NCBI RefSeq assembly: GCF_003334255.1
Contig: NZ_QOWU01000064.1
Reading direction: 5' to 3' (one strand)
DNA: 26,066 bases
Source: Escherichia coli
Lineage (GTDB): Bacteria; Pseudomonadota; Gammaproteobacteria; Enterobacterales; Enterobacteriaceae
This document shows positions 10,014-10,304 of this stretch, one piece after another. The notes beneath the pieces are model-generated. The model was given only the letters and a program-made list of their open reading frames with translations. It was not told where the DNA came from and did no database searches. The first letter of the stretch is position 1. The number at the start of each line of letters is the position of its first letter. Position numbers and translations under genes: made by a program.

Positions 10014-10286
10014 GTAACGCATCTGTTTTTGTTTGTCATGCTGTAGACGGATCATTATCTATCATTATAAGTCTACAGAATCTGAACATCGCATTATCTG
10101 TGTAGAAATGCCCATTTAACTGCCTGAAGAGTAACCCAACGGCCTTTTTATTTCACCACCTAATCCTCCACCAGCCAGTAACTTCTCTTTTTCTCGCCGC
10201 CCTGCGTCAGCGTGTTTAGCAACTGTAACAAATATTAAAATAGCAGGTGTTTATCCGCACAACATGATGCTATGCTGACCAAACCA

Positions 10287-10304
10287 TGTTTAGTAAATTA
10301 AACA
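10287..10304. promoter_or_regulatory. NAD-box-like palindrome TGTTTA-N6-TAAACA (putative NadR operator) just upstream of nadB
   Basis: Perfect inverted hexamers at 10287-10292 and 10299-10304, ending 7 nt before the nadB ATG. A second partial box TGTTTA-N7-TAACA is at 10213-10230. Confidence 0.5.

Follow-up and report, generated by a model that had tools for sequence, protein, structure and literature searches.

INTRODUCTION

Repression of nadB by NadR is already known, and is textbook enterobacterial NAD homeostasis. The operator consensus of NadR is an 18-bp palindrome, TGTTTA-N6-TAAACA (PMC2330245), and the operator is recognized via a helix-turn-helix (HTH) domain, at the N terminus, that is restricted to enterobacterial NadR (PMC2330245; PMC5343134). 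The regulon includes nadB (PMC2330245; PMC5343134). When it was reconstructed by comparison of 11 genomes, 27 sites emerged, approximately one per operon (PMC5343134), and these figures suggest that a single site serves each operon. In Salmonella, the nadB promoter fragment is bound by NadR in both EMSA and ChIP-qPCR, at a resolution coarser than the 18-mer; deletion of nadR raises nadB mRNA 8-10 fold; and the binding of NadR to DNA is antagonized by ATP and by c-di-GMP, and restored by NAD (PMC12421817).

The closest described systems are the NAD boxes of nadA-pnuC and pncB, which share the regulator and the pathway logic of nadB, with NAD as co-repressor. Aligned with the nadB box, as the sequence-only reading of this DNA had proposed, the E. 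coli nadA box (TGTTTAGCATATAAAACA), which starts at -90 from the start codon, and the pncB box (TGTTTATTGTACTAAACG), which starts at -47 and has a -10-like TATACT just upstream of it, prove to be the same 18-bp motif, each with a single mismatch. Of the three, only the nadB box matches perfectly, and it is also the nearest to its start codon, at -24 versus -47 (pncB) and -90 (nadA). nadB differs also in possessing a second, degenerate box. Within the ~450 bp scanned at each gene, nadA and pncB have one box each, and no auxiliary box with three or fewer mismatches was found at E. coli nadA, pncB or nadR, the last of these annotated as a DNA-binding repressor. A single box is enough for repression at nadA and at pncB, so NadR can act without an auxiliary site.

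Paired operators are familiar from lac (O1/O3) and gal (OE/OI), in which a main and a weaker, auxiliary operator occupy the same face of the helix and a multimeric repressor loops the DNA between them. NadR, too, reportedly forms multimers (Singh et al. 2002; Penfound & Foster 1999). The 74-bp spacing of the nadB boxes is shorter than that of lac O1-O3 (92 bp) or of gal (about 114 bp). Looping by NadR is an analogy with these systems, and the nadB boxes are phased as the analogy would have them. The curated NadR site of E. coli nadB, of the RegPrecise/RegulonDB type, coincides with the proximal of the two boxes, and reportedly derives from the comparative work of Gerasimova & Gelfand 2005 (cited in PMC2330245). 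It was by this motif that the comparative reconstruction placed nadB in the regulon.

Here, we describe the control region of nadB in a 26,066-bp stretch of E. coli K-12 DNA, the whole of which we refer to as 'the window'. This element is, in our judgement, very probably the operator region by which NadR acts on the E. coli nadB promoter, and in it the proximal box would be the main operator and the distal box a probable auxiliary one.

THE rpoE–nadB INTERGENIC REGION

Both boxes lie within the divergent rpoE/rseD–nadB intergenic region. This 407-bp stretch is 100% identical to that of E. coli K-12 MG1655, and occurs as a single copy in 5,426 of 5,426 complete E. coli genomes. Positions in NC_000913.3 are obtained by adding 2,700,109 to the window coordinate. 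In the RefSeq annotation of the identical MG1655 sequence, rseC-rseB-rseA-rpoE-rseD occupy the minus strand and nadB, which encodes L-aspartate oxidase, the plus strand. The nadB coding sequence, that of the regulated gene, extends from 10311 to 11933, according to both this annotation and the list of open reading frames (ORFs). On the other side, sequence reading and the ORF list place the rpoE ATG at 9903 (minus strand), and it is preceded by a 51-codon ORF at 9900-10055 (minus strand) that RefSeq names as the rpoE leader peptide RseD. There is a 4-nt overlap between this ORF and the start of rpoE, and the 3' half of the ORF is well conserved family-wide.

Several other features of the window may be recorded here. 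The 3' end of nadB overlaps that of the convergent gene, trmN (yfiC), by 16 nt (11918-11933), and in the ORF list trmN reaches a GTG at 12775, past its annotated start. Rfam families matched at their gathering thresholds are the antisense RNA AsrC, opposite rseC (6897-7728, plus strand); rncO, which is the rnc operon leader (3900-4114, minus strand); the antitoxin sRNA ohsC (411-487, plus strand); the sRNA ES036, or CssrF (14195-14237, minus strand); and a 5S rRNA that is cut by the end of the window (25963-26066, minus strand).

For comparison, we scanned a collection of species-representative genomes with NadB, and obtained 80 Enterobacteriaceae loci with 84-98% protein identity. Usable upstream sequence was present in 78 of the 80, and together with the window these make a set of 79 sequences, all distinct. 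The set is without any Salmonella nadB upstream region (locus L061 is incomplete). Around the nadB control elements, the intergenic DNA is for the most part conserved at 50% or less in this alignment, and it is against this background that the conserved elements described below stand out.

THE PROXIMAL BOX

The main operator, TGTTTAGTAAATTAAACA, occupies positions 10287-10304. Read directly, it consists of TGTTTA (10287-10292), a spacer, GTAAAT (10293-10298), and TAAACA (10299-10304), and so matches the NadR consensus at all 12 of the 12 specified bases. AAGAAA (10305-10310) separates it from the nadB ATG (10311), such that the A of the ATG is 7 nt past the last base of the box. The palindrome was originally noticed at just this place, and direct reading bears this out.

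Two kinds of evidence set the palindrome apart from its surroundings. One is rarity. In the window, TGTTTA-N6-TAAACA occurs exactly once, at the proximal box, against an expectation of 0.01 from 100 shuffles. With up to two mismatches allowed, there are five matches against 0.81 expected, and none of the 100 shuffles gave five; three of the 2-mismatch matches are inside or near coding regions. The seven-letter string TGTTTAG, sought on both strands, occurs only twice. Each box has one of these copies as its left half; both lie on one strand, at a distance of 74 bp from each other. The other is conservation: the proximal box is kept in all 79 of the 79 Enterobacteriaceae upstream regions. From this family-wide invariance, we infer that the Salmonella binding data apply to the proximal box. 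The match to the consensus, the published regulon, and the binding and derepression observed in Salmonella all support the original proposal that NadR represses nadB.

The spacer is conserved to an unexpected degree. GTAAAT is identical in 74 of 79 species, and the variants GTACAT and GCGCAT account for the other five. Because known NadR boxes carry different spacers (GCATAT at nadA, TTGTAC at pncB, and GTATAC at Proteus niaP), NadR alone does not obviously require GTAAAT, and its near-invariance is unexplained by NadR alone.

THE PREDICTED nadB PROMOTER AND LEADER

A scan of 9850-10400 for the sigma70 consensus, TTGACA/TATAAT, found no promoter, nor was a terminator found there. The simple scan comes up empty because the -35 region of nadB is poor. 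A candidate promoter was recognized, instead, by cross-species conservation of the pattern TGnTAnnnT. In E. coli, the putative extended -10 element is TGcTATGCT, at 10268-10276 on the plus strand, and its defining bases, T10268, G10269, T10271, A10272 and T10276, show a conservation of at least 90-100% across the 79 species. Upstream of it, at 10236-10253 (plus strand), an A-rich, UP-element-like tract (approximately -47 to -42) is followed by a weak -35 region; the run of A's is conserved, as is GTG at 10247-10249. Transcription is predicted to start at an A at 10283 (plus strand), 7 nt after the -10 hexamer and invariant in the alignment. No coordinate for the nadB start was found in the supplementary files of the papers on Cappable-seq, ROSE, Rend-seq and Shigella M90T, or in those of Romero 2014, Kim 2012 and Conway 2014; in ROSE, nadB/rpoE read stacks appear in a figure legend only. 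The transcript positions given here, including +5 to +22 and -61.5, are accordingly those indicated by the conserved promoter-like motif.

Counted from this predicted start, the proximal box would occupy about +5 to +22 of the nadB transcript, with its centre near +13.5. This is close to the position of lacO1, which is centred at +11, just downstream of the start. The distance from the -10 element to the beginning of the box is 10 nt in 63 species and 11 nt in 13 (together 76 of 79), while the gap that separates its end from the start codon ranges from 2 to 8 nt across the 79. The fixed spacing on one side and the variable gap on the other mean, therefore, that the box is placed relative to the promoter and not relative to the start codon, as would be expected of a transcriptional operator at about +5 to +22.

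The predicted leader is 28 nt long (10283-10310, plus strand), A/U-rich, and devoid of a Shine-Dalgarno (SD) sequence; two thirds of it is operator sequence. In none of the 79 species is there room for an SD between the proximal box and the ATG, and in 77 of the 79 a match to the SD core of at least 4 nt is absent from the leader altogether, which rules out an SD concealed between the box and the ATG. The sequence-only reading had remarked that the proximal box lies where the ribosome-binding site should be, and that this is an unusual placement for a transcriptional operator. The overlap is real. That the placement is unusual is not supported: at a fixed 10-11 nt from the conserved -10, the box would lie at approximately +5 to +22, a position familiar from lacO1. 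The operator occupies the place of an SD because the predicted leader is some 28 nt long and SD-less, not because the operator is oddly positioned.

In Buttiauxella, Cedecea and their relatives (loci L032, L042, L043, L045, L051 and L054, and also L055, L057, L064, L069, L071 and L074), the NadR box ends only 2 nt before the nadB ATG. At these loci TAAATT, from the spacer, is 7 nt upstream of the A of the ATG, the geometry of a -10 element for a leaderless transcript. This is probably coincidence; yet it shows how scant the nadB leader can be.

THE DISTAL BOX

The second box occupies 10213-10230. As first noticed, it reads as a partial palindrome, TGTTTA-N7-TAACA (TGTTTAgcaactgTAACA, with the intervening letters gcaactg), and direct reading confirms this. 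Written in the N6 register of the NadR consensus (TGTTTAgcaactGTAACA), the E. coli sequence matches at 10 of the 12 specified bases, and the two mismatches are both at inner positions of the right half.

Comparison shows which of these bases matter to the family. Positions 2-7 (GTTTAG) are present in 79 of 79 species, and position 1 is T in 68 of 79. In the right half, position 15 is A in 67 of 79, position 16 is A in 77 and position 17 is C in 78, and these three mirror G2-T3-T4; position 18, in addition, is kept in part. The consensus bases at positions 13 and 14 (T and A) are present in just 2/79 and 6/79, so that more than 90% of the species are non-consensus there. The pattern is that of a degenerate but correctly registered palindrome, rather than of a stray half-site, so far as sequence can tell.

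The spacing of the two boxes is conserved as well. The distance from start to start is 74 bp in 48 species and 73 bp in 28 (76/79), and, with 10.5 bp to the turn, 73-74 bp corresponds to 7.0 helical turns. Thirteen species have one more base between the -10 and the main box; in 12 of these the upstream segment measures 54 nt instead of 55, the more frequent length, and the total stays at 74, a compensation that, the species being related, may represent one or two evolutionary events only. The invariant GTTTAG, the AAC conserved in register, and the 73-74 bp spacing across the 79 species support the initial suggestion that the boxes form a tandem pair. We conclude that the distal box is probably an auxiliary NadR operator, to which NadR may bind.

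With respect to the predicted nadB start, the distal box would lie at about -70 to -53, centred near -61.5 and directly upstream of the UP-like A-tract. The gal operator OE, for comparison, is at -60.5. TGTTTA occurs once more, at 10248-10253, where the weak -35 region is; the sequence-only reading had passed this copy over. It is confined to Escherichia, and we dropped it as a general third NadR half-site; GTG alone is conserved at that place.

THE DIVERGENT rpoE SIDE

According to reviews, rpoE has six promoters, and two of these, P2 (sigma54-dependent) and P3 (sigma70-dependent), initiate at a common site. A strict scan of the intergenic region found two matches to the sigma54-like pattern GG-N10-GC. 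One of these, cGGATAAACACCTGCt (10257-10242, minus strand), is a sigma54-like -24/-12 element directed toward rpoE, with a predicted start some 328 nt upstream of the rpoE ATG. The shared start of P2 and P3, which we take to be at -327, fits this prediction. The element lies across the nadB -35 region, and the third TGTTTA, the one confined to Escherichia, falls within it. When the entire window was scanned loosely for sigma54 sites, with three mismatches allowed, the outcome was uninformative (75 matches versus 89 expected). If the -327 start holds, the distal box would make up positions +1 to +18 of the P2/P3 transcripts, which run away from nadB, and an influence of NadR on distal rpoE transcription becomes a possibility. 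The GG and GC of cGGATAAACACCTGCt are not conserved in E. albertii or E. whittamii, however, nor in other genera, and the family-wide conservation of the distal box is therefore better explained by control of nadB.

Closer to rpoE there are three further conserved blocks, all on the minus strand: a sigmaE-type promoter, GGAACTT-N16-TCTAA, at 9985-10012, with its start at about -75 from the rpoE ATG; a strongly conserved TATAAT (10070-10065) within 10054-10073; and a promoter-like TGAAAT-N16-TACTCT at 10128-10156, with a predicted start at about -219. All three are consistent with the several rpoE promoters that have been published. Between them and the nadB control module lies an interval, 10165-10211, that is not conserved.

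ALTERNATIVE READINGS

That both motifs are chance palindromes with no regulatory role can be set aside as vanishingly improbable. The intergenic DNA is A/T-rich, and 2-mismatch matches do occur elsewhere in the window, but an exact match is expected only 0.01 times per window, the proximal box is invariant in 79 species amid flanking DNA that is approximately 50% or less identical, and the binding and repression of nadB by NadR are published (PMC12421817; PMC2330245). Conservation and the published data together effectively refute it. A more substantive possibility, and still an unlikely one, is that NadR operates at the proximal palindrome alone, and that the distal TGTTTAG...AAC is conserved for another reason: as part of the nadB UP element or of a docking region for the C-terminal domain of the RNA polymerase alpha subunit (alpha-CTD), as the site of some other transcription factor, or as part of a distal promoter of rpoE. 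The distal box lacks the consensus at positions 13-14 in nearly all species, and it adjoins a conserved A-tract at the distance expected of an UP element. One box suffices at nadA and pncB, and the reconstructed regulon, with its 27 sites in 11 genomes, averages about one per operon (PMC5343134). In K-12, moreover, the rpoE-directed start predicted from the minus-strand GG-N10-GC (10257-10242) falls at about 10230-10231, on the very edge of the box. Against this, the bases conserved in the distal box are an exact NadR half-site plus the next G (TGTTTAG), the same letters as the proximal and nadA boxes have in their left halves, and its AAC sits precisely at the mirror positions, 15-17. UP elements, being A/T-rich, make no demand for an invariant G at two positions, and the sigma54-like GG and GC are not kept in other species of Escherichia, whereas the distal box is kept family-wide. 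It is these points that incline us to the auxiliary operator.

The proximal palindrome could, in addition to binding NadR, act at the level of RNA, as a hairpin or A/U-rich initiation element, or, through its -10-like TAAATT, as a site of sigma70-dependent pausing. Such a role would explain the near-invariant spacer (GTAAAT in 74/79, where other NadR boxes differ) and would suit the SD-less state of 77/79 leaders; and the minimum-free-energy fold of the leader does contain a 6-bp A-U hairpin formed by the palindrome. The hairpin is weak, however, the leader does not exceed shuffled sequence in stability (z = -0.88; 38 of 200 shuffles fold as well), and Rfam has no family at the leader region. 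The 2-8 nt gap between box and ATG, set against the fixed distance to the -10, indicates a constraint on the DNA and the promoter rather than on the positioning of ribosomes. The spacer itself tolerates GTACAT and GCGCAT in five species, and covariation is no help because the palindrome is invariant. On balance, we consider an added RNA-level role rather improbable; that the invariance of the spacer reflects an operator doubling as an SD-less translation-initiation region, or some promoter-proximal role, is possible but unsupported.

A MODEL FOR THE REPRESSION OF nadB

The reading that we prefer, a main operator at the proximal box and a probable auxiliary operator at the distal one, suggests the following mechanism. 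When NAD is plentiful, NadR would bind the perfect palindrome, TGTTTAGTAAATTAAACA, through its N-terminal helix-turn-helix. Since this palindrome would lie inside the footprint of RNA polymerase, past the start, bound NadR would block initiation or promoter escape, much as Lac repressor does at lacO1. The degenerate box, ~74 bp or seven helical turns upstream, would most likely serve as an auxiliary operator. A NadR multimer that occupied both boxes might loop the DNA across the promoter; alternatively, NadR at the distal box might hinder the contacts of the alpha-CTD. Either event would make repression tighter at the first committed step in the de novo synthesis of NAD. Once NAD falls, leaving NadR in its ATP-bound form, or when c-di-GMP rises, NadR would leave the DNA and nadB would be transcribed. 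The resulting mRNA would begin with the ~28-nt, SD-less leader, so that the DNA of the operator would also encode most of the A/U-rich region in which translation is initiated.

Two features temper the role assigned to the distal box in this scheme. Given its two mismatches, its affinity for NadR may be low, or absent. And the constant spacing of 73-74 bp could reflect a fixed promoter architecture, and not looping. The fullest form of the model, in which nadB is the one E. coli NadR target, of those examined, to have a conserved, low-affinity second operator seven turns upstream that acts by bridging or by blocking the UP/alpha-CTD interaction, and that in K-12 could also couple NAD status to distal transcription of rpoE, the gene for the envelope-stress sigma factor, is one that we put forward tentatively, and with more doubt than belief.

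CONCLUSIONS

What is added here to the familiar picture of NadR and nadB is modest, and architectural: a probable auxiliary box, half-degenerate, that is phased with the main operator family-wide, a conserved, putative extended -10, and a predicted leader of ~28 nt, SD-less and largely operator sequence. The overlap of the distal box with the distal promoter region of rpoE hints that cofactor status might be tied to the envelope stress response, which is speculative. If the distal site is functional, nadB would provide a simple, natural case of phased, dual NadR operators, and the arrangement would explain how nadB, the first committed step, comes under tighter control than nadA or pncB.
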